From positions 6,686 to 70,685 of IMG/VR virus record IMGVR_UViG_3300021963_000002: DNA of 64,000 bases, one strand, 5' to 3'. Numbering within the stretch: the first letter of the stretch is position 1; every line of letters starts with the position of its first letter. Under the pieces are notes generated by a model. That model ran no database searches. It had not been told where the DNA came from and worked only from the letters and a program-made list of their open reading frames with translations. The stretch is from a virus. The translations under genes were made by a program, and so were the position numbers. Below, one piece after another: positions 6,147 through 38,982 of the stretch.

Positions 6147-6367
6147 CCCAGTCCGTCTTTAGGGACGTGCTCGCCACCAAGCAAGAACTCAAGGACCTGC
6201 ATTCGGTCTGCTGTGTATTTGCAGCGCTTGTCTTTCTTGTCTTCGGTATTCGGGCTGGTCTCGCAGCGCTGTTCGCTTGGGGTATCTGCTCAATCTGGAG
6301 CTCCCTGCCTTTTTGGCCAGTCGCTGGCTTGTTTTTTGTTGTCTCTTTTCTAATTCCGCAACGATGA
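6143..6367 (+). CDS. Small membrane protein
   Basis: Long hydrophobic stretches; ATGA overlaps at both ends. Confidence 0.55.
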   Translation: MTQSVFRDVLATKQELKDLHSVCCVFAALVFLVFGIRAGLAALFAWGICSIWSSLPFWPVAGLFFVVSFLIPQR

Positions 6368-8643
6368 AGTCTGATTTCTCTCCTTTGGCGCCTGCCGCGA
6401 ACCCGGTGTTCTACAGGACCTACAGCCGAAAGACCGCTGATGGTCGGGAGAGCTGGCAGGCCGTTGTGGAGCGGACTGTGCGTGGCATCGCTGAGTTGGG
6501 TCAGCTCACGGAATCTGAGACGGAGCTGATTCGTCGGATGCAACTGGATCAAAAGGTGCTTCCCTCCGGTCGTTGGCTGTGGGTCGGTGGCACCGATTGG
6601 ATCGACGATCCTTCTAACTTCTCCGGCGCCTACAACTGCACCTCGACCAACCTCGTCGACTGGGAGGCGTTCGGGTTGATGATGGATCTGGCGATGATGG
6701 GCTCCGGCACTGGGGCGATCATCGAGGAGCGCTGCATCCGCAAGCTTCCTGAGATCCGCAACTGTTTCCGCATCGTCGAGGTCAAGGAACCTGGCTCTGT
6801 CCCTGAGGGCGAGCGCAAGGAATTCACAAAGGTCACCAGCAAGGGCAATGCCCTGAACATCCAAGTTGGCGATAGCCGCCAGGGTTGGGTGGAGAGCTAC
6901 CAGGCGCTGCTGGAGTGCTCCAGTGATGACAGCTTTGATCCTGCCAAGGCGATTGAGGTCACTGTTGATCTCTCCAATGTCCGGCCGTCTGGCGAGAAGC
7001 TCAAGGGTTTTGGTGGGACCTCCAACCCCATCAAGTTGAAGGATCTGTACGGCCGGATGGTCGCCATCCTGAACAAGGCGCAAGGTCGCAAGTTGACCTC
7101 AGTTGAGTGCTGCCTCCTGATCGACGAGGCTGCCTCGGTCGTGGTGGCCGGCAACATCCGCCGCTCTGCCGGTATGCGCCAGTTCGGCTCCGATGACTTT
7201 TCTGCGGCTGTCGCGAAGGACAATCTTTGGCAGCAGGACAGCGAGGGCAACTGGCGCATCGATCCCGAGCGCGATGCCTTGCGGATGGCGAACCACACCC
7301 GGGTGTTCCACTCCAAGCCCAGTCGCGAGACGGTGCTGGAAGCCGTGACCAAGCAGTTCTATTCCGGTGAGGGCGCGATCCAGTTCGCTCCGGAGGCGAT
7401 TGCTCGCTCGAACGCTGACATCCTTAAGACCAAGGATCAGCGCAAGATGTTCGTCGATCTCTACTGCGACGACGGTATTGATGCGGCTGCTTCGTACCTC
7501 TGGATGCAGCAACCTGACTGCTCTTATGAGGAGATGCAGCACCGGATGGGCCGCTATGGGTTAAATCCTTGTGGGGAGATCCTGGGCTCTGATTTCCACT
7601 GCAATCTGTCGGAAGTCCACCTCAACCGCCTCGATCCGACTGATACCCATGCCCAGAGTGAAGCCTTCCGCGCCGGTGCTCTGGCAGTGGCCGCTCTCCT
7701 CAACCACCGCTTCGTTGTCGAGCGGTACCGGAAGAGTCGTGAGCTGGACCCCATCGTGGGAGTGTCCTTTACCGGACTCTTCGACTTCTTCGTCCACGCT
7801 TTTGGCAGCTCCTGGCTCAAGTGGTGGGAAGCCGGTCGTCCTAATACAGACGAGGGCAAAGCATTCCGCGCAACGGAACAGGCATACCTGATGCGCTGGC
7901 GGAACATCGTGGACAGCACCGTCCGCGAGTACTGCGAAAGACTCGGGCTCCGTGTTCCTAACCGCTGCACCACCGTTCAGCCCGCCGGTACCAAGAGCCT
8001 CTTAACCGGAGCGTCTTCGGGTTGGCATCCGCCCAAGGCAACTCGCTTTATCCGCCGGATCACCTTCCGCAAGGACGATCCTGTGGCTCTGGCTTGCCTG
8101 GACTACGGCTACACCGTTGTTCCCTCCCAATCTGACAAGGATGAAGAGGGTCGGCTGCTGGACGATCCGTTCGATCCGCGCTGCACCGAGTGGCTCGTGG
8201 AAATTCCCACGGCTGTGAGCTGGGCAGGCGTCGAAGGTGCTGACCAGGTCGACATCAGCCAGTTTTCAGCCCTGGCGCAATATGACTTCTACATGCAAGT
8301 GCAGAAGTACTACACCGCGCACAACACTTCGGCGACCATCGAGTACCGCGAGAACGAGATCGAGCCCCTGGCCAATGCCATCTACCAGTCCATGGAGAAC
8401 GGCGACGGCTACATCTCTGCAGCATTGCTGGCTCGTTTCGATGCAAATGAGACGTTCCCTCGTCTGCCCTTTGAGCCGATTACTGAAGAGCGCTTCGATG
8501 AGCTTCAGGCGCAGGTGATCCAACGCCGCAAGACAGAAGACTTCTTCGCTGCCCTTCAGCAATACGACACCGCTGAACTTGTCGAGGCTGGCCCTGCTGG
8601 CTGCGATTCGGACAAGTGTCTCCTGCCGCTCGCTAAAGGCTGA
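6364..8643 (+). CDS. nrdJ: Class II (adenosylcobalamin-dependent) ribonucleotide reductase, monomeric RTPR type
   Basis: RTYSR, PSGRWLW, AYNC, GNIRRSA, NPCGE, CNLSE, TTVQPAGTKS, C-terminal CDSDKC; ATG 6364. Confidence 0.95.
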   Translation: MKSDFSPLAPAANPVFYRTYSRKTADGRESWQAVVERTVRGIAELGQLTESETELIRRMQLDQKVLPSGRWLWVGGTDWIDDPSNFSGAYNCTSTNLVDWEAFGLMMDLAMMGSGTGAIIEERCIRKLPEIRNCFRIVEVKEPGSVPEGERKEFTKVTSKGNALNIQVGDSRQGWVESYQALLECSSDDSFDPAKAIEVTVDLSNVRPSGEKLKGFGGTSNPIKLKDLYGRMVAILNKAQGRKLTSVECCLLIDEAASVVVAGNIRRSAGMRQFGSDDFSAAVAKDNLWQQDSEGNWRIDPERDALRMANHTRVFHSKPSRETVLEAVTKQFYSGEGAIQFAPEAIARSNADILKTKDQRKMFVDLYCDDGIDAAASYLWMQQPDCSYEEMQHRMGRYGLNPCGEILGSDFHCNLSEVHLNRLDPTDTHAQSEAFRAGALAVAALLNHRFVVERYRKSRELDPIVGVSFTGLFDFFVHAFGSSWLKWWEAGRPNTDEGKAFRATEQAYLMRWRNIVDSTVREYCERLGLRVPNRCTTVQPAGTKSLLTGASSGWHPPKATRFIRRITFRKDDPVALACLDYGYTVVPSQSDKDEEGRLLDDPFDPRCTEWLVEIPTAVSWAGVEGADQVDISQFSALAQYDFYMQVQKYYTAHNTSATIEYRENEIEPLANAIYQSMENGDGYISAALLARFDANETFPRLPFEPITEERFDELQAQVIQRRKTEDFFAALQQYDTAELVEAGPAGCDSDKCLLPLAKG

Positions 8644-10828: not shown

Positions 10829-11062
10829 ATCTTTACTCCGGGAGGTCCGTCCAAACTAGGATGAGACTGCCTGCGGTGCAAGGGATCCCAGTCCAGGACT
10901 GGTGTCCTGTTTTGTATTCGTGTCTCAAGTCAGTGCCCAAGCGGCTTTTCTGCGGCTTAGAAGGCAGAATACACTCGTTGCGCGGGAAGGGATCTCATCC
11001 AGTCTCTACTTGCGCTTTACACGGAAACGCAGATCTGGATTGGATGTGCGGGGGTGGTGAAG

Positions 11063-11136
11063 CGGGCCGTGCTGGACTCGAACCAGCGACCGAGTACTTA
11101 GAAGGTACTTGCTCTATCCAACTGAGCTAACGGCCC
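11063..11136 (-). tRNA. tRNA-Arg (anticodon TCT)
   Basis: Cloverleaf: acceptor GGGCCGT/ACGGCCC, D-arm GCTC/GAGC, anticodon arm AGTAC-CTTCTAA-GTACT, T-arm GCTGG-TTCGAGT-CCAGC; no encoded CCA. Confidence 0.95.
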
Positions 11137-12759: not shown

Positions 12760-12920
12760 CCCTTGCCTTGACCCCTGTACTTCTTGCGAGCGCTGGAGCG
12801 TTTGGTGCGGCCAGAAAATACGCGGCTGCGGACGCGCCAGCCGTCACCAATGCGAGTGCGCTTGGGTTTACCCGCAATGTGGATGGTTCCACTTAGTCCC
12901 TTGCGTGCCTTAACTGCCAT
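12756..12920 (-). CDS. Small basic protein ending KKYRGQG
   Basis: TAATG coupling to endolysin stop; resembles small basic cyanophage proteins. Confidence 0.6.
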   Translation of the reverse strand: MAVKARKGLSGTIHIAGKPKRTRIGDGWRVRSRVFSGRTKRSSARKKYRGQGKG

Positions 12921-14101
12921 TACTTGTTGAGGAGAATGCCCCACCCAGTCCCAGGACCTTCAACGGTCCAGCGGGGGCGCAGGTTTTTGATCGAGTACTT
13001 GAGGTGATCGCCGTTGGTGTTTTTCAGGTAGCCACCGGCAACCACGTTCATCTCCCCGTACGGATCGTTCACGATGAAGTGGCTGTCCGTGAGACCCACC
13101 ACCAGGAGCCAGTGCCCCGTACCAGTGGGGGCCGAGCTGGGGCCTTTGTGCAGGACGCCAATCGGAACGGGAATTCCCTTTTCCAGCTGGGCCTTCAGGT
13201 CTGAGATGTCCAGGTTTTGGCGGTAGGAGCCATTGACGCCAAAGGATTCCATGGCCTTGAGCTGGGCCTGGTAATCGGTGGTGTCGCCGAACTGCTGAAC
13301 GCGGCGCAGATAGAAGTCGTCTTTCTGGGCGGATTGCAGCTTGCCCGGGCGGAGGAAGTCCACCGCCATCGCGCAGGTGCTCGAGAAACACATCCGCAAG
13401 CCCTGGTCCGTGTTGGAGTCGAGCTGGGAGAAGAAAGGAACCGGAAGGCTCAGGAGCTTCGGCTGAGGAGGCTTGGCGCCAGTCTTTGGCGCGTACTGAT
13501 CCATCAGCCGGATGATTTTCGAGCTGTACTCGGGATCCGTTGCGTACCGCTCTTTGACAAGGAGCTGGGCGGCCTCCTCTCTGGTGGCGGCGCGGTTGAC
13601 CCCTTTGTACTGCTCCCAGTCCTTGTACCAGCGATCAACGATGTAATCGACGCCTTCTTGGATCGAGGCGAAGTTTCGGAAGTTGGCCTCGATGGTGACC
13701 CACTTACCGTCGATGAATTCCTGCGTGGTCTTGATCGTGCCTTTGGCCCGACCAGTTGACTTGACGCCCCAGTAGTTAAACCGACCTGACGGGGCACGGC
13801 CGAACGACGATTCGAGTGCCCACTGCGCCGCCAGCAGCTCAGGGAATTTTGCGCCAGCTTGTGCGGCAGCGGTGCAGATCCCTGACCAGGTGTTTTCTAC
13901 ATCTGGACTGGGAGGCGGATTGATGGGGGCTCGGAAGAGACTAACCCATTCGGCTTGCTCCGTCATCAGAGATGGATCAGCCTTGGTGACGTGCTCTTGG
14001 AGCATGTCCGCTGCTGCCAGATGCTTCGGGTTATCAGGGTTGAAGTACCTGAAAAAATCCCGTAGTTTTCCTGTTTCAAAAGCCAGGTCAGACATCGTCA
14101 T
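12920..14101 (-). CDS. Endolysin: glucosaminidase (GH73-like) + C39-like peptidase
   Basis: AAQWALESSFG, FNYWGVK, YATDPEY; SQLD..MCFSSTCAM, GHWLLVVG, VNDPYG. Confidence 0.88.
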   Translation of the reverse strand: MTMSDLAFETGKLRDFFRYFNPDNPKHLAAADMLQEHVTKADPSLMTEQAEWVSLFRAPINPPPSPDVENTWSGICTAAAQAGAKFPELLAAQWALESSFGRAPSGRFNYWGVKSTGRAKGTIKTTQEFIDGKWVTIEANFRNFASIQEGVDYIVDRWYKDWEQYKGVNRAATREEAAQLLVKERYATDPEYSSKIIRLMDQYAPKTGAKPPQPKLLSLPVPFFSQLDSNTDQGLRMCFSSTCAMAVDFLRPGKLQSAQKDDFYLRRVQQFGDTTDYQAQLKAMESFGVNGSYRQNLDISDLKAQLEKGIPVPIGVLHKGPSSAPTGTGHWLLVVGLTDSHFIVNDPYGEMNVVAGGYLKNTNGDHLKYSIKNLRPRWTVEGPGTGWGILLNK

Positions 14102-14330
14102 CTTTTAACCAAGGTGCTTTGATCTGCATCTCTCCGCCAAGCAAACTCTGTGCTCGGGAGCCATCGGGGGGATGCTCAATGATTTGCGGGGGAGGTGTAG
14201 TCGGCTGGCTACGGTGCCACTCCTCTTCAGCTCGGTCGAGCTTTGCTGGGAGGGTGGCGTAGAACTTCTTAGCCTGAGCCCAGCGCCTGAAATCTTCTTT
14301 CCAGGAGCGGCTAGATAACCGAAGCTCTAC
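14088..14330 (-). CDS. Start-less 80-codon ORF reachable by -1 frameshift from the holin-like gene
   Basis: VELRLSSRSWKEDF...IKAPWLKDDDV; no ATG/GTG/TTG near 5' end; stop overlaps endolysin start. Confidence 0.65.
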   Translation of the reverse strand, partial: VELRLSSRSWKEDFRRWAQAKKFYATLPAKLDRAEEEWHRSQPTTPPPQIIEHPPDGSRAQSLLGGEMQIKAPWLKDDDV

Positions 14331-14485
14331 TTTTTTTTGCCTTTCGAACGCAGCAGCAGTTCGAGAGCCGAGGCTACGAGTTGAAGAATCGAGTTGGAGC
14401 GGACTTTGTCGCTAGGGATCAGAGCCAGAATCTCTGATACGGCGGTAAGTACTACCCAAAAAATGGGAGATTCAATAAGGCCCAT
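14327..14485 (-). CDS. Holin-like small membrane protein
   Basis: 52 aa, hydrophobic helices, basic tail KGKKK, upstream of endolysin; ends in slippery A-AAA-AAG-TAG. Confidence 0.65.
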   Translation of the reverse strand: MGLIESPIFWVVLTAVSEILALIPSDKVRSNSILQLVASALELLLRSKGKKK

Positions 14486-14777
14486 TGGTATGACCTGTCG
14501 GGGCTGACTTATTGTAACCAATTAAAATTTGATCAAGCTTGTAGTCCATTCTGTCGATGCGGCTATCAAGCTTTTCCAGGATATGAGCTAGGTCCTCTTT
14601 ATCCACATATTCTTTGGCAAGGCGGATTTCTATGCCATCGATACGGCGATCTACGGCTTCAATACGGTCGCTGGCAACTTTGTCCAACTGCTCAAACCGC
14701 TTGCCGAGTGTGAGCAGTGCTGATGCGGCGCCTCCGAGGAGACTGAGCACAATGCTCAGTGGTAGCACAGGTTCCAC
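14472..14777 (-). CDS. Membrane-anchored coiled-coil protein of the lysis cassette
   Basis: N-terminal TM segment, coiled-coil, EYVDKED motif. Confidence 0.6.
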   Translation of the reverse strand: MEPVLPLSIVLSLLGGAASALLTLGKRFEQLDKVASDRIEAVDRRIDGIEIRLAKEYVDKEDLAHILEKLDSRIDRMDYKLDQILIGYNKSAPTGHTNGPY

Positions 14778-32841: not shown

Positions 32842-33198
32842 TTAAGGCGCGTAAGCCAAGCTCAGTGTGAATGTGAAGATCCGCCTGTTTGTTGATGGCA
32901 GAATCTGCTCGTTGTAGGTGCCGTTCTTCAGGCGGTACCGCTGTTGAGTGCTTGAAAAAGGTGCCAATGTGGCGAGGAAGTAGTCTCCGCTGGCCACAAG
33001 GTCAAGGTTGGTTTTTAGCGTGTTGGCGTCAGCGGACGTCAGAGGCTTAGTCGTTACGTCGTACTCTGTCCGCTTGGTGTTTATGCCGTCCTTCTGTATC
33101 TGCTCGTAACCCTCACCGAATCCGTATTTTCTGACGCGGTGGGTTACCTTCTCGACGACGGAAATCGTCAGGTCAAGGGATAGCGTTCTATCGGCCAC
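32842..33198 (-). CDS. Minor tail protein (lambda M-like distal tail)
   Basis: FGEGYEQ..DGIN motif; follows tape measure. Confidence 0.8.
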   Translation of the reverse strand: MADRTLSLDLTISVVEKVTHRVRKYGFGEGYEQIQKDGINTKRTEYDVTTKPLTSADANTLKTNLDLVASGDYFLATLAPFSSTQQRYRLKNGTYNEQILPSTNRRIFTFTLSLAYAP

Positions 33199-36100
33199 TC
33201 AACATACCTCCAGGACGCCGCTCTTCAAGGATGACGCGCTTAACCGCGTTATCAATTGCTTTTCCGAGTTTACCGGCCTGATCACCAGTCATCTCAGTCT
33301 GAGTTCCTCCCTGACTGTCGACATTGACTGTGATGTTGGTGTTGACTGTGTTGCCTGCCTGCTGCTTCATGTCAACAGGAATCGCTTTGCCGTTTGGCAA
33401 GGGAACGACGGCTTCGTTGTAGGCGCCTTCTCCTACCAGGCCGAGTGTTGGACGATTAACAACGCCCCCTTTGGCAAAGGCTTGGAAACCACCGACCAGG
33501 ATGTTGCCGTTCTTGCTGAAGACAGCACCCGAGCCCATGAACATGTTCGCTCCAGTTGAGCCTGTTCCTGAGGTCAGCAGGCTGTCCATCCCGAAGCCTG
33601 CCAAGGGGCTGCCACTGGTTGCACCTGCGCCGCCGCCACCGAACAATCCGCCCAGGAAGCCTCCAGGGCCGCCATCGGCGTTGTTCATCCCGAAGATCCC
33701 CAGCAGCGATTTGAGGACCAGCATCTTGATCATGTCCGCGATGATCTTTTGCGCCATGCCGAAGAACGAGTCGGCAATGCTGCTGAACGTGTCGGCAAGC
33801 ACTTCCTGCACTGACCTCGCACCGGTCAGAACGTCCTTAACCCCAGTCGTCATGGCCGTGCCAATGGCCTGACCCACTCCAGAGGCCACGTCGCTCAGCA
33901 GCTGGAATTGGTTACGCATGGCCTCGAATTCGCCCATGCGCTCAGCGTCAAAAAGCTTCTGCTGCCTGAGTTCCTCGAATTTGGTTCGTAGTTCTTCTGC
34001 GGCGTCGCTGGTATCAGTCCGCCAGTTGGGCATTTGCTGGTCGTACTGCGCGCCGATCTGAGCCATCTCGGTCTCAGCCATGACCCGCTGCTGTTGTCGG
34101 GGGTCATAAAACAGCTGCGACTGGAGCTGCCCTGCCCCTCCGAGGATGGATTGTGTTGTACCCAGCGCGCTCTGCCGCTTCTGGCTCATCAGGTCACTGA
34201 TCGCCGCTTTCTGACGCTCAGCTTCCAGCGCGGCCAGACGGAGCCTCACCTCTTCATCCAGCTGCTCTTTAGTGCCGCCCTTCCCGTAGAAGCGTTTGCG
34301 TGCTTCTTCTTCCAGGGTCTTCAGCTTCTCGGCGGTCATGCCGCGTAGTTCGCCGGCCTTCTTGATCGTCTCGGCCAGCTCTGCCTCGAACTTGTTGATG
34401 TCCGCGATCCGCTTGGCGTAGATGGCGGCCTGCTCGGGGTCGAGGCTCATCTTTGAAGCTTGGGCGAATGCCTTGACCTCAATGACGGCGTCGCGGAATT
34501 GCTCGACGGGGATGTTGGGCGCCAGGGCCTTGAAGAAGTTGTCGAGGTTTTCCTTGTTGGTGATGTCCTGGTTCAGGCGCTCGAACTGCTGCAGCTCCTT
34601 GTTCAGCCCGATTAAGCCGCGCTTGGCACCTTCGAAACCGGCGGTTGACGGGGCCGCCACACCGCCTGCGTTGAGATTGGGGCGTGCAGGCGAGCCAGTA
34701 CCGGCTGTACTGGTTGCTTTGCTCCCCTGTTGCAGGTGAAGGAAGCGATTGCCCAGACCAAACAGTGATGGGGCGGTGTAGCCCCCGCCGCTTGGGTCGA
34801 AGCCCACACCACCCACCGGTACAGGGATCGGCGTGCCCATCGGTACGGCCAGATCAATCGCACCACTGCTCGCTCCTGGTCGGCGCCCTCTCGTCGAGTC
34901 GTGGGCCTGCTGCTCCAGCTTGAGCAAGCGCTGCAGTTCACCTGAATCTGTGACCCGGGTGATGTCCTTGTTGATGTTGGACAGCACGATGTACTTCACG
35001 CCCATCTGCTGCCAGGCTTTGATGATCGCCTCGGCTTCCTGGATCACGCCTGCGGCGTTAGGGCCTCGGATGTCGAGGTGAGGTCCAGAGCTACGGCCTG
35101 TGCTGCCCACACGAGCCGTTGCTCCAGCAGCCCCTGGGAGCATCACGCCACCACCTGGAGCTGCACCGCCGTTGAGCTTGGCTGCTTCCTGCTGCTTTCT
35201 GACGTAGTCAGCAGTATCCATTTCGAGCTTGGCGCCCTGTTTCTTGAGCTCCAAGATCTTTTGTGCAATGTCGAACTTGTAGTTCTCGATCTCCTTCTCG
35301 ATTTCAGCGGCTTGGAGCTGGAACTCCCGTCGCTTGGCTTCGATGTTGACTTCGCCCTTTTCTTTCTCAACCAGGTAGGTGTTCAGTGCATCCAGCGCTG
35401 TTGCGGAGGCACCCTCTTGACCGTCGATGAGCTTACGGTTGTAGATGTCAACCTGGCGGATGCGGAGTTCTTCTCCTGCTTGGAAGACCTCGATCTGCTT
35501 GCGAGCCAGCTCCATGCGAGCGCCGAACTCGGCATTGGCCACGTCCCGGGCCAGCTGCATTTGCTGCTGGGCGAGCTTTTCGTTCTGATCACCTAATGCC
35601 TTGGCTCGGGTGGTGACCTCCTCGTTCAGGGCTTCTTTCTTCCTGCCTTTCTCGTAGTTCGTCAGAGTGTCTACATATTGTTTTTCTGCGGCAAAACGCC
35701 TGCCAACTGCTTTTTGAAGCTCGCCTTCAAGACCTTGTAGTTGGGTCTTCATGGCATTGATGCCCTGGATATCCAGGCCAAAGGCAAACGCCTGACGTTC
35801 TCCGAGTTCTTTCTTCAGCTGCTGTATCTTTTCTGTCAGCTCAGAAACCTGTTTATCTGCGTCAGCAAATTCTTCTTTTTGTTGCGAGAGTGTGCTCTGA
35901 GCCTGTGATTCCCTCAGGTCTTTTAGCGCTCTCTCGGCGGCTGATGAATTCTCATCTACATCTTTCAGTTCATTATTGAGCGCTCTAATTGCCTCTTTGC
36001 CTCTCTTGTCGCTTGCGACCTTCTCCTGGGCGCGCTGCCACCTTCCGAACGCATCGACGATGGCAGTGATGCTGAGCTGGATGATAAGCAGAACCGCGTT

Positions 36101-38008
36101 GAACTTAATCATGTTCAGCGCCAGCATCTTCATGCCGTTGCCCAGTGCGTTGGCAGCTCCGTTGGCCGCTGCCATTGATGCTCCGGCCCCTTTCGCGGCG
36201 GCTCCTGTAGAGGTCAGAGCCGCTGCCAGTTGATTCACAGCGGGGATTGCCACGCCCAAGCGGGCCACCAGCGCAGCAATCGATTGACCTAGCGCTGTCA
36301 GCAGAGTGCCCAGTGCGGCCAGGGCCTGCCCCAGGGTTGTGGTGATCGCAGTTGCGGCAGTTCTGACGGCAGCGACCACGCCACCCCACATCTGGGAGAA
36401 GGCGATACCACCGGCAATGAGCTTCACAAAGCCCATCACGCCGACTGCTTCCAACAGCTTGAACTGAGCCGTCAGGGAGCTGATGTACTCAACGACAGGG
36501 AGCTGCAGGAATTGGCCGTAGAGCTGCAGCAGCGAGGAGGTCGCCGAGATCAGCGGCTGAGCTACGGCGAGGAGGTTTTGGAATGCCTGCAGCAGCTGCT
36601 GGAAGACCTCGACCTTGAGGCTGACGAAGCCGGAGGCCAGGGCACCCAGACCCTGCAGCAGTTTCGCGAGGCTCGCGTTGATCAGGTCGAAGACGTTGCG
36701 GAGCGGTGCGGCGAGCTCCCCAGCCAACGCCGCGATCTTGGTGCTGAGTCGGTCAATCGTCTGGGCAGCAGCGTCGGCCATCTGCTGGGCCTGAGCGTTC
36801 CCACCACTGACTGAGCGGGAATTGCCGATGGACTGAGTACCGATGATGGAGGCAGCATTGGCGAGCCCACCACCCAACGCCTTGGCAGCAGCGAAGGCTT
36901 GCTCCTTGACTCCGCTGAGGATGCTGTAAACCCGGTTCAGGCCGGCGACCAGGGGATCCACAAGGGGACCGCCGAACGCTTGGCCCAGCAGTTCGACCAG
37001 ATCTCTCAGGTTGGAGGTGACACCGCTGAACGACTTGGCAGCCAGCGCTTGTCCCGCAACAGCTGTTGCCAGCTTCTTGTTCAGGAACGCGACCAGTCCC
37101 TCAGTGGAGTTTTTGGCTTTCTGGACGTCCTCGTTCGTGATGCCCAGCGCTTTTGCCAGGTAGGAGTCAGTGGTGATGTCTCCCCGGAGAATTGAGCCGA
37201 TCTCCTGGCGTGCCTGGTACAGGGGGATCCCGAAGGTCCCCAACGCCCCGGAGAAGGCGATGGCCAGATCTTCCGCATCCTTCAGGCTTCCACCGATGGA
37301 GCCGATCTGGGAGGAGACCATCGAGAAGACCTCGACAACCTCCGTGCTGGTGACGCCGGCCAGATCCAGCGACCGCTTCCTGATGCTGTCGATTCGTTTC
37401 TCAATCGACCCCGTCAGCGCGTTGATGGCTTTGAACGGGTCCTCGATCTTCCTGCCGCCGGCAAAGACATCGTTGGTCGATGCCAGCGCCGTCTGAGTCT
37501 TCAGGATCTGCTCACGGAGAGCGATCTCCTGACCGATGGTGGCCTTGAAGAACCCACCGAAGGCCCCCTGGAGTGCGCCGGTGATCTGCTGCAGGCCGTA
37601 AAGAGCGAATCCAATCTTGGCGAGGTTGTTGGTGAGCTTGGCTACGGCACCAACAGAGCCTTCAAAGCTGTTTTTGAGGATATTCCCCGCTTTAGCCCCC
37701 TCCTTAAGATCTCTTGAGATCTGCGGCAGTTGCTTGGTAGTACGAATCAGCTTTTCGGCTGACTCGATCTTGTCCTCAAATAGGGGAGTTCTCTTGGCTA
37801 CTTCGTATGTGGTTTTGAGCGCGGACCCAATGGTCTCGATATCGCGCTTAAGTGCACGGATATTGTTCCGTGCTTTGTCGATTGAAAAATCAAACTCGCG
37901 CTTCTTGTTGACGACTTGATCGGCACTGCGCCCCAAGTCGTTAATATCTTGCTTCGCCCGGCCAGTCTCGGCGGAGATAAATAGCGTAAGGTCTCCGAGA
38001 GATGCCAC
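33188..38008 (-). CDS. Tape measure protein with internal M23-like motifs
   Basis: 1606 aa, helical/TM-rich, C-terminal FAKGGVVNRPT..GE...EAVVPL and RPGGML. Confidence 0.92.
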   Translation of the reverse strand: MASLGDLTLFISAETGRAKQDINDLGRSADQVVNKKREFDFSIDKARNNIRALKRDIETIGSALKTTYEVAKRTPLFEDKIESAEKLIRTTKQLPQISRDLKEGAKAGNILKNSFEGSVGAVAKLTNNLAKIGFALYGLQQITGALQGAFGGFFKATIGQEIALREQILKTQTALASTNDVFAGGRKIEDPFKAINALTGSIEKRIDSIRKRSLDLAGVTSTEVVEVFSMVSSQIGSIGGSLKDAEDLAIAFSGALGTFGIPLYQARQEIGSILRGDITTDSYLAKALGITNEDVQKAKNSTEGLVAFLNKKLATAVAGQALAAKSFSGVTSNLRDLVELLGQAFGGPLVDPLVAGLNRVYSILSGVKEQAFAAAKALGGGLANAASIIGTQSIGNSRSVSGGNAQAQQMADAAAQTIDRLSTKIAALAGELAAPLRNVFDLINASLAKLLQGLGALASGFVSLKVEVFQQLLQAFQNLLAVAQPLISATSSLLQLYGQFLQLPVVEYISSLTAQFKLLEAVGVMGFVKLIAGGIAFSQMWGGVVAAVRTAATAITTTLGQALAALGTLLTALGQSIAALVARLGVAIPAVNQLAAALTSTGAAAKGAGASMAAANGAANALGNGMKMLALNMIKFNAVLLIIQLSITAIVDAFGRWQRAQEKVASDKRGKEAIRALNNELKDVDENSSAAERALKDLRESQAQSTLSQQKEEFADADKQVSELTEKIQQLKKELGERQAFAFGLDIQGINAMKTQLQGLEGELQKAVGRRFAAEKQYVDTLTNYEKGRKKEALNEEVTTRAKALGDQNEKLAQQQMQLARDVANAEFGARMELARKQIEVFQAGEELRIRQVDIYNRKLIDGQEGASATALDALNTYLVEKEKGEVNIEAKRREFQLQAAEIEKEIENYKFDIAQKILELKKQGAKLEMDTADYVRKQQEAAKLNGGAAPGGGVMLPGAAGATARVGSTGRSSGPHLDIRGPNAAGVIQEAEAIIKAWQQMGVKYIVLSNINKDITRVTDSGELQRLLKLEQQAHDSTRGRRPGASSGAIDLAVPMGTPIPVPVGGVGFDPSGGGYTAPSLFGLGNRFLHLQQGSKATSTAGTGSPARPNLNAGGVAAPSTAGFEGAKRGLIGLNKELQQFERLNQDITNKENLDNFFKALAPNIPVEQFRDAVIEVKAFAQASKMSLDPEQAAIYAKRIADINKFEAELAETIKKAGELRGMTAEKLKTLEEEARKRFYGKGGTKEQLDEEVRLRLAALEAERQKAAISDLMSQKRQSALGTTQSILGGAGQLQSQLFYDPRQQQRVMAETEMAQIGAQYDQQMPNWRTDTSDAAEELRTKFEELRQQKLFDAERMGEFEAMRNQFQLLSDVASGVGQAIGTAMTTGVKDVLTGARSVQEVLADTFSSIADSFFGMAQKIIADMIKMLVLKSLLGIFGMNNADGGPGGFLGGLFGGGGAGATSGSPLAGFGMDSLLTSGTGSTGANMFMGSGAVFSKNGNILVGGFQAFAKGGVVNRPTLGLVGEGAYNEAVVPLPNGKAIPVDMKQQAGNTVNTNITVNVDSQGGTQTEMTGDQAGKLGKAIDNAVKRVILEERRPGGMLSGR

Positions 38009-38041: not shown

Positions 38042-38491
38042 CTATTTCAGGGATACGACCTTGCTCAGTGCCGCAATAACGTGTACTGGCAGTCTTCCTG
38101 AGCGGACTAACTTATTGATTATCTCTGATGTCTCTGTCTGCTGCTGCGATGCTGACGCATTGAGGGCAAACGGCAGGATGTCGTCGATACTTAGTTTGTT
38201 GGGAGCCTTGTTGCCCGCCATCCCTTGGGCAACCTGAACGACGATTAAGGCCAGCTTGGCGGTCGAGATGGACTCGATATTGGCCCTCCGCTTCTCCTCC
38301 TCAAACGCAAATTCCAGGACTGTGTAGATCTCCTTCAGCGGGGTGCGAAGGAAGGTCGTCCGGTCGTACTCGGCGGCTAAGACGCCGCTGCGAACCTGGA
38401 GGTAGAGCTTCGTGACGTCAAGAGGTTTTTGAGCGAGGTATTCCCTGTGCTTCTCGATCAGCTTCTCGGGATCTACCTCGCTCTCTTTCAG
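38042..38491 (-). CDS. Tail assembly chaperone C-terminal extension (gpT-like, -1 frame)
   Basis: 149-codon open frame beginning at slippery G-GGA-AAC (38497-38491), ending just before tape measure. Confidence 0.8.
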   Translation of the reverse strand: MKESEVDPEKLIEKHREYLAQKPLDVTKLYLQVRSGVLAAEYDRTTFLRTPLKEIYTVLEFAFEEEKRRANIESISTAKLALIVVQVAQGMAGNKAPNKLSIDDILPFALNASASQQQTETSEIINKLVRSGRLPVHVIAALSKVVSLK

Positions 38492-38982
38492 TTTCCCTCG
38501 TCGCCTTCAGACGGCCAGCCGTTGCGTTCCCAATTGATGAACTCGAAGATCTCGTTCAGGAGCTTGCTGGGTACTAGCAGGGTGTCTTCCCGGGTCCAGT
38601 CTCTGGTCTCGACCCACTGATCACCTTCTTGAGCCTCGCCTCGGTAGCGGAGGAAGAGGGTCACCATTTCGATCTGCTGCTCTGCAACGGTGGCTGAGTC
38701 CTTCTGGACTTCCGCCAGCTCCTCTGCATGCTCGTACAGGACCTCGTTGTCGCTGTCGGTATTGCTCAGGAGCTCCAGAGCATCCTTGACGCTGATCTTG
38801 CGCTTCTTGGAGACGGCTTTCGCGATCTTCAGCAGGGAGTACGTGTTCTGCGCCTGCTTGCGAGCGATCTCCTCGACACCTTCGGCCTCTCCAGCTACGA
38901 GATCTTTGTAGATCGGGAAACGGAAGGGGAGAATCTCGTGGTATTCCTTTTCCTTGAAGAAGAGCTTTGAATAACGGCTCAT
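38488..38982 (-). CDS. Tail assembly chaperone (gpG-like)
   Basis: Between tail tube and tape measure; ends GGGAAAC-TGA. Confidence 0.8.
   Translation of the reverse strand: MSRYSKLFFKEKEYHEILPFRFPIYKDLVAGEAEGVEEIARKQAQNTYSLLKIAKAVSKKRKISVKDALELLSNTDSDNEVLYEHAEELAEVQKDSATVAEQQIEMVTLFLRYRGEAQEGDQWVETRDWTREDTLLVPSKLLNEIFEFINWERNGWPSEGDEGN

Follow-up and report, generated by a model that had tools for sequence, protein, structure and literature searches.

A 64,000-nucleotide (nt) stretch of viral DNA (IMG/VR record IMGVR_UViG_3300021963_000002, positions 6,686 to 70,685; hereafter the window, meaning this whole stretch) very probably contains a programmed −1 ribosomal frameshift site next to the endolysin gene of a cyanophage; the site is conserved and of canonical type, and its gene context is new. 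The genome is a single phage contig of 70,685 bp, most of which falls within the window, and the site is encoded on the minus strand. An open reading frame (ORF) of 52 sense codons (P0001, 14330..14485), which encodes a small membrane protein, ends GGC AAA AAA AAG. The last seven letters form the slippery heptamer A AAA AAG (14330..14336), which stands in X XXY YYZ phase with this zero frame, and the zero-frame stop TAG (14327..14329) follows directly 3' of it. The −1 frame stays open for 80 codons (P0004, 14091..14330), lacks a start codon of its own, and closes at a TGA (14088..14090) within the first codons of the endolysin gene (P0002, 393 amino acids (aa), 12920..14101, ATG at 14101-14099; PHROG 10051, endolysin), with an overlap of 14 nt between this TGA and the endolysin start. 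The ORF end, the heptamer at 14336-14330, the 80-codon −1 frame and the endolysin overlap had all been described in an initial annotation of the window and hold on the minus strand; the 52-aa and approximately 132-aa products that it had proposed are supported by comparison with related loci.

In the proposed mechanism, ribosomes translating the 52-codon ORF would reach A AAA AAG just before the TAG, and most would terminate there to release the 52-aa protein. A fraction would slip back by one nucleotide, with both Lys-tRNAs re-pairing on AAA AAA, and would continue for 80 codons to yield a product of about 132 aa carrying the same membrane segment followed by a hydrophilic domain. This long product would be the functional, membrane-tethered version of a domain which other cyanophages attach to the membrane by other means, the slip efficiency would set how much bare membrane protein is made per anchored domain, and the short and long proteins would act as a pair in host lysis. 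The heptamer alone is uninformative, because AAAAAAG occurs five times in the window against 5.8 occurrences expected, an unremarkable count. What stands above chance is its phase, its placement at the stop and its conservation.

Conservation of the slippery site

Close relatives comprised four viral contigs that were found through the endolysin and include the upstream region, and four metagenome contigs found through the extension. Among the close loci (78-93% protein identity), A AAA AAG and the TAG stop are retained in 9/9 with 0 indels, the codon supplying the first A of the heptamer being AAA, GCA, GGA or ACA with only its final A constant. The initial annotation had proposed to look in homologous loci for the heptamer and for a downstream frame without a start, and both are found in these nine. 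In two of them (L005 and L006) the −1 frame opens just two codons ahead of the heptamer and so leaves no space for upstream initiation; L006 also shares with the window a run of eight A's (A8).

The wider comparison drew on scans of viral contigs with sub-alignments, which gave 142 loci (the first scan covering the best 80 of 349 relatives, the second 63 relatives at 62 loci). The frame of the extension domain was set by profile, which matched in 151 of 152 sources, L004 lacking the region, and a site was scored where an upstream ORF one base ahead ended at an in-phase heptamer. The resulting set of 120 distinct loci, in all of which the domain follows a small ORF, consists of L001-L121, L124 and the window, minus L004 and minus L105 and L106, which are repeat contigs of L001 and L002. 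In 117 of these 120 loci a 46-55-aa ORF carries an in-phase canonical heptamer whose end is 0-9 nt ahead of the stop, extending the expected conservation to more than 100 loci and three canonical heptamers: A AAA AAG in 90, G GGA AAG in 25 and C CCA AAG in 2. The stop codon that follows is TGA in 48, TAG in 41 and TAA in 28, at a distance of 0 nt in 30 loci, 3 nt in 86 and 9 nt in 1. C CCA AAG is used by L068, L074 and L079, the last of which has the heptamer in a locus cut by the contig end.

The codon preceding A AAA AAG always has the form NNA, and in doing so specifies ten amino acids (A, G, K, T, P, E, V, R, Q and S). As a phase control, heptamers were counted in 151 loci at 6152 positions per phase: the in-phase count was 157, and the two remaining phases gave 15 and 34. 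Because the codon supplying the first A gives ten residues, because heptamer types are exchanged and because of this phase bias, the signal is conserved beyond amino-acid need; as judged from these alignments, selection acts on a nucleotide signal over and above the encoded amino acids. The loci collapse to 49 clusters at approximately 85% similarity. A tree of the 49 representatives requires 8 changes of heptamer and spacing state (minimum 5), and the sister loci L024 and L089 carry different heptamers. The 29 loci in which the domain follows another N-terminal domain possess a start of their own and lack such a site; four chance heptamers occur among them, none of which fits.

Initiation in the −1 frame

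If the 80-codon frame were a separate gene, translated from a non-canonical start or by re-initiation after the TAG, its product would be a free 80-aa protein. Gene callers have predicted such ORFs, and separate genes with a stop/start overlap like that of phage S-CBS2 (described below) are found in 3 of the 29 loci with the other N-terminal domain. Near the site, the −1 frame holds an ATG in 14 of the 117 loci and some ATG, GTG or TTG in 41. The window itself offers little to such a gene, however: ATG, GTG and TTG are all absent from the 27 open codons before the slip site and from the codons after it up to codon 64, where the first one stands, and the claim of the initial annotation that the frame has no usable start is borne out. 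None occurs before extension codon 62-66 in the window and nine close relatives. More widely, the stretch from the upstream −1 stop to 12 codons beyond the site is free of all three triplets in 76 of the 117 loci and free of ATG in 103, and the −1 frame opens within three codons of the heptamer in 18 loci.

Where an ATG does follow the site, the residues between heptamer and ATG (V.[WLR]PPDG) are conserved as protein, which speaks against that ATG being the beginning of the coding region, and in L092-L099 the first ATG sits 15 codons within the domain. Re-initiation would also leave unexplained why an in-phase heptamer is kept through ten different preceding residues and swapped for other canonical heptamers. 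A separate gene is therefore improbable as the explanation of the frame change, and many of the stand-alone proteins in databases are truncated gene calls.

Transcriptional slippage and sequencing error

The A8 run of the window (14331-14338) is its sole homopolymer of eight or more. Long A runs are known RNA polymerase slippage sites, and a polymerase that added or dropped an A here would produce altered transcripts to be read in the normal way. The eight consecutive A's of the window and of L006 would suit this explanation, but most relatives have just six A's (A6) at the site, and 27 of the 117 loci use G GGA AAG or C CCA AAG; since these hold just three A's (A3), transcriptional slippage is not the mechanism of the family. 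What is conserved is a heptamer in a specific phase and not the length of a run, and the DNA assemblies are free of length variation. This explanation is less probable still than a separate gene, and slippage of the polymerase could add to the effect of the ribosomal shift at the A8 run of this phage.

The same A8 run, as the only homopolymer of its length in the window, raises the question of an error within an intact 132-codon gene, or of a dead gene remnant. The site is retained in contigs from independent public runs, X2 and X3 (0 differences) and X4, whose assemblies come from three other studies; a further contig, X1, was left out of this count as it may be the source sample. X4 differs from the window by 30 substitutions and 0 indels across 901 nt, and 5 of its 7 substitutions within the extension fall at third codon positions of the −1 frame. 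With three concordant assemblies that carry no indel, an equal frame arrangement in 117 of 120 loci where the runs are shorter, and an extension whose ratio of nonsynonymous to synonymous substitution rates (dN/dS) is 0.04-0.13, the chance of an artefact or of decay is as good as nil. The homopolymer sequencing error that the initial annotation had named as a possible refutation is ruled out by the agreement of independent assemblies and by relatives that have just A6 or A3 at the site.

The short protein and its extension

The 52-aa protein has a hydrophobic segment at residues 6-25 (Kyte-Doolittle 19-residue mean 1.79) and an amphipathic helix at 33-46, with a charge of −1 at the N-terminus and +5 in the Lys-rich C-terminus, and its ORF evolves with a dN/dS of 0.05-0.15. 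Its small size, transmembrane (TM) segment, charged C-terminus and position beside an endolysin gene are holin-like traits. The label holin-like in the initial annotation thus fits in shape and position but not in membership of a holin family by sequence: against described holin families the protein gave nothing significant in Pfam and no holin PHROG, and its sole PHROG match is 22542 (E 1e-9), of unknown function. Both 'holin' and 'holin/antiholin' are here labels from position and shape only.

The −1 extension is, judging by its substitution pattern, protein-coding and under purifying selection. Among six distinct close sequences its dN/dS is the 0.04-0.13 already given, with synonymous divergence (dS) mostly above 1, while the same DNA read in the two wrong frames gives median dN/dS values of 1.9 and 2.7, and variable sites fall 19/16/62 over the three codon positions. 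In the extension, a long helix and a Pro-rich linker precede a C-terminal PDGS..LLGG..APW motif, which is its most conserved part; the extension has no hydrophobic segment. An AlphaFold2 model built from 49 sequences (predicted local distance difference test score, pLDDT, 71.6; predicted TM-score, pTM, 0.35) shows a 32-residue helix (10-41), the Pro-rich linker and a small hairpin; a Foldseek search of this model against the PDB returned no match at E <= 0.001. No Pfam family was matched by any of 49 extensions and PHROGs gave two weak matches, to phrog_3316. A word-index homologue search with the 80-aa extension gave nothing, the ESM Atlas gave no usable match, and a DNA search of a phage collection gave one weak lysozyme match only.

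Sites in isolated phages

Two isolated phages carry the arrangement. In Synechococcus phage S-CBS3, gp21 (46 aa) ends GGA AAA AAG CTC TAG and, read further in the −1 frame, the sequence continues into the endolysin gp23, the annotated gp22 being a truncated internal call (NC_015465, 1361-1713). In cyanophage KBS-S-2A, CPKG_00007 (49 aa) ends GCA AAA AAG AGC TGA (NC_020854, 1328-1710), and nothing is annotated in the 204 nt that separate CPKG_00007 from the endolysin. Both have the gene order of the window, namely a gene for a TM and coiled-coil protein, the small ORF with its extension, and the endolysin. The site is an entry point into cyanophage lysis for which two cultured phage-host pairs, S-CBS3 with Synechococcus CB0202 and KBS-S-2A with Synechococcus WH7803, carry related sites. 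To our knowledge, the lysis proteins of cyanophages other than endolysins are poorly defined. The gap in annotation is considerable, as the extension is without a Pfam family, has a PHROG match in just 2 of 49 representatives, and GenBank gives it only in truncated form (S-CBS3) or leaves it out (KBS-S-2A).

Other architectures of the extension domain

A profile of the extension searched against 1.84 billion representative proteins gave 75 matches at E <= 1e-3, which fall into four groups: 'stand-alone' proteins of approximately 80 aa; proteins of 100-128 aa whose low-complexity N-terminus resembles out-of-frame read-through of an overlapping gene; proteins of approximately 100-136 aa with a different, non-hydrophobic N-terminal domain; and proteins of 127-158 aa with an N-terminal hydrophobic segment. 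The last form, which has 287 relatives in viral contigs, combines in a single ORF a positively charged N-terminal stretch, a hydrophobic segment (Kyte-Doolittle 19-residue mean >=1.69 in 7 of the 9 examined) and the C-terminal motif of the extension. These single-ORF relatives are frequent in large myovirus-like cyanophage contigs, where a 103-aa ORF with hydrophobic C-terminal helices follows (L159, 2504-2905).

A third arrangement is found in phage S-CBS2 (NC_015463, 2669-3159), in which the small membrane protein has a 59-aa homologue, gp049, and the C-terminal motif belongs to gp048, where another N-terminal domain precedes it. The two genes overlap at GTGA, which combines the GTG start of gp048 with the gp049 stop, and the pair lies approximately 6 kb from the endolysin of that phage. 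The separate-gene stop/start overlap also occurs in L125 and L131.

The initial annotation had suggested that homologues with a start codon of their own or with an in-frame fusion would point to a sequencing error. Such homologues exist among distant relatives, but they belong to other phage groups, are built differently and do not represent corrected versions of this gene, and they speak for a membrane-anchored fusion being the functional form. Across these phages the domain is repeatedly joined to a membrane segment, whether in a single ORF, through a frameshift or as a neighbouring gene, and it is mainly because of this repeated pairing that the shifted 132-aa protein is seen as a working form and not a by-product. 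The 132-aa product is most likely the membrane-anchored form of the domain.

The endolysin and a possible role in lysis

Because the short/long pair is encoded between the gene for a membrane/coiled-coil protein and the endolysin gene, a role in lysis is suggested; from position only, we put the case for such a role at about even or slightly better. The endolysin P0002 consists of an N-terminal domain of approximately 55 aa (N-domain; 13916-14101, minus strand) followed by Glucosaminidase and Peptidase_C39-like domains. A motif search of the downstream gene covered 37 of the 48 non-window representatives; L010, L013, L028, L030, L052, L076, L115, L120, L121 and L124, for which a short or unrelated ORF had been picked, were left out. 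The downstream gene opens with the conserved ~55-aa N-domain in 36 of the 37 and overlaps the end of the extension by 8-41 nt, and L075 and L090 carry the N-domain too, as seen by eye. The domain precedes varied catalytic modules (glucosaminidase plus C39-like, lysozyme-like, and a type of ~245 aa), and it follows the frameshift extension throughout the loci where it is seen. Pfam returned nothing for 37 endolysin N-domains. The endolysin of S-CBS2 was considered as a further carrier of the N-domain on a weak internal profile match (E 6e-4), which was judged unreliable.

Since the extension and the endolysin N-domain co-occur, the two might interact, or shifted ribosomes might feed endolysin translation. 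Shine-Dalgarno (SD)-like cores were examined as support for such coupling and proved uninformative, with 4 of 36 before the endolysin start against 2 of 49 at the small-ORF starts used as control. A bolder reading, which is tentative and rather unlikely to hold as a whole, is that in cyanobacterial siphoviruses a second widely conserved programmed −1 frameshift, additional to that of the tail chaperone, serves as lysis control, joining a holin-like anchor to a domain that docks the N-domain shared by their otherwise diverse endolysins. In this reading shifted ribosomes might also gate endolysin translation, because their termination falls inside the endolysin start. If it were true, slip efficiency would set the amount of membrane-held enzyme and the time of burst.

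Observations that weigh against the proposed shift and role

Several observations count against ribosomal frameshifting with a function in lysis. Two loci of the set, the identical pair L102 and L103, lack a canonical heptamer and have A UCA AAG TAG instead, which may be a weak A-site-only slip site or a site that has been lost. Where an ATG follows within 12 codons of the site (14 of 117 loci), ribosomes may also start there independently, in addition to shifting or in its place. How readily A AAA AAG slips depends on the Lys-tRNA set of the host. No RNA run is listed as containing the stretch. There is no SD-like motif upstream of the slip site and no conserved stimulatory element was found. 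The window has a 10-bp stem starting from the last base of the heptamer (z −2.07), and the bases of this stem scarcely covary within the close clade; over the 49 representatives, downstream folding exceeds that of a control stretch only slightly (mean z −0.95 and −0.43), and no structure is shared. The constant feature near the slip site is a stop codon 0-3 nt past the heptamer.

As regards function, a role in lysis is proposed from gene order, and single-ORF relatives in myovirus-like contigs sit instead among replication and nucleotide-metabolism genes; the neighbours of one look like an exonuclease, ThyX and PhoH, names given from reading the ORFs. The topology is also ambiguous, as the Lys-rich C-terminus of the short protein predicts a cytoplasmic extension, whereas the single-ORF relatives look N-in/C-out, which would place the domain outside the cytoplasm.

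In the L102/L103 pair the site (~1470-1495) reads AAA UCA AAG TAG and the −1 frame opens one codon upstream.

Relation to known systems

Conserved recoding sites are few in tailed phages, and the tail-chaperone shift is the textbook case. This G/GT −1 frameshift of the tail assembly chaperones of tailed phages was reportedly described by Xu, Hendrix and Duda in 2004, with G GGA AAG as the site of lambda. The phage of the window has a tail-chaperone −1 site of its own, G GGA AAC at 38497-38491 on the minus strand, directly before the stop of a 164-aa ORF (38488..38982), from which the −1 frame runs for 151 codons towards a 1606-aa tape measure gene (33188..38008, minus strand). The site beside the endolysin resembles the G/GT system in several respects: an X XXY YYZ heptamer stands at or close to where a short ORF ends, the long product would keep the N-terminal part and acquire an additional C-terminal domain, the position is kept while the sequence of the site varies, and the product ratio would be fixed by slip efficiency. 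As in the chaperone site of the same phage, the heptamer directly precedes the stop. It differs in lying beside the endolysin, ~19 kb from the tape measure gene instead of upstream of it, and in that the shared part is a membrane segment, so that the shift would decide whether a soluble domain is anchored.

The E. coli dnaX gene makes two products in a set ratio, tau and gamma, through a frameshift on A AAA AAG, the identical heptamer. In dnaX, however, the shifted product is the shorter one and the site has an upstream SD-like element and a downstream stem-loop, whereas here the shifted product would be the longer one and no conserved stimulator was found. Holin/antiholin pairs such as S105/S107 of lambda and S68/S71 of phage 21 arise from dual starts in one gene. 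The likeness to these lies in a small membrane protein beside an endolysin, with one gene and two predicted isoforms in a set ratio; unlike them, the isoforms of the putative holin would differ by 80 C-terminal residues through a frameshift and not by 2-3 N-terminal ones. An i-spanin (Rz-like) joins an N-terminal membrane anchor to a helical periplasmic domain and is paired with a lipoprotein of the outer membrane. The fusion would contain an anchor and a long helix, charge rules place the extension in the cytoplasm, the single-ORF relatives look N-in/C-out, and no lipoprotein partner was seen, none having been searched for.

The lysis gene of MS2 is reported to be expressed when ribosomes change frame within the coat gene that overlaps it (Kastelein et al. 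1982; PMC10885494). In MS2 the shifted ribosomes end near the start of the lysis gene, much as they would here end inside the first endolysin codons, but the MS2 shift is rare, unprogrammed and merely delivers ribosomes, whereas here the shifted frame encodes a conserved domain. Coupling of the shift to endolysin translation is no more than a possibility here.

No published description of this frameshift was found in the accessible portions of the literature, a search that did not extend to the original S-CBS3 genome paper or to supplementary files. The accessible literature on phage frameshifts and lysis yielded only tail-chaperone or capsid frameshifts and general tools. The word frameshift is absent from the KBS2A announcement (PMC3751600) and the S-LBS1 paper (PMC6157547), and the available parts of PMC3483164, PMC13704836, PMC9671017 and PMC10885494 hold no report of this frameshift. 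A Streptomyces phage announcement mentions unverified predicted frameshifts 'near holins' (PMC9671017). The layout thus seems to be undescribed so far. Its significance lies in a canonical −1 site, placed in a module other than that of the tail and present at no fewer than 117 loci with three heptamer types, which would decide whether a domain is linked to the membrane.

Neighbouring genes in the window

The gene upstream of the small ORF (P0003, 101 aa, 14472..14777, minus strand) encodes a coiled coil behind an N-terminal TM segment (residues 4-22, Kyte-Doolittle 19-residue mean 2.11), and its 3' end overlaps the start of the 52-codon ORF. A similar upstream gene (80-131 aa, N-terminal TM segment plus coiled coil) was found by a crude rule in 29 of the 49 representatives, the rest being missed or cut. 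A tRNA-Arg gene (anticodon TCT) at 11062-11136 on the minus strand is the sole tRNA gene found in the window.

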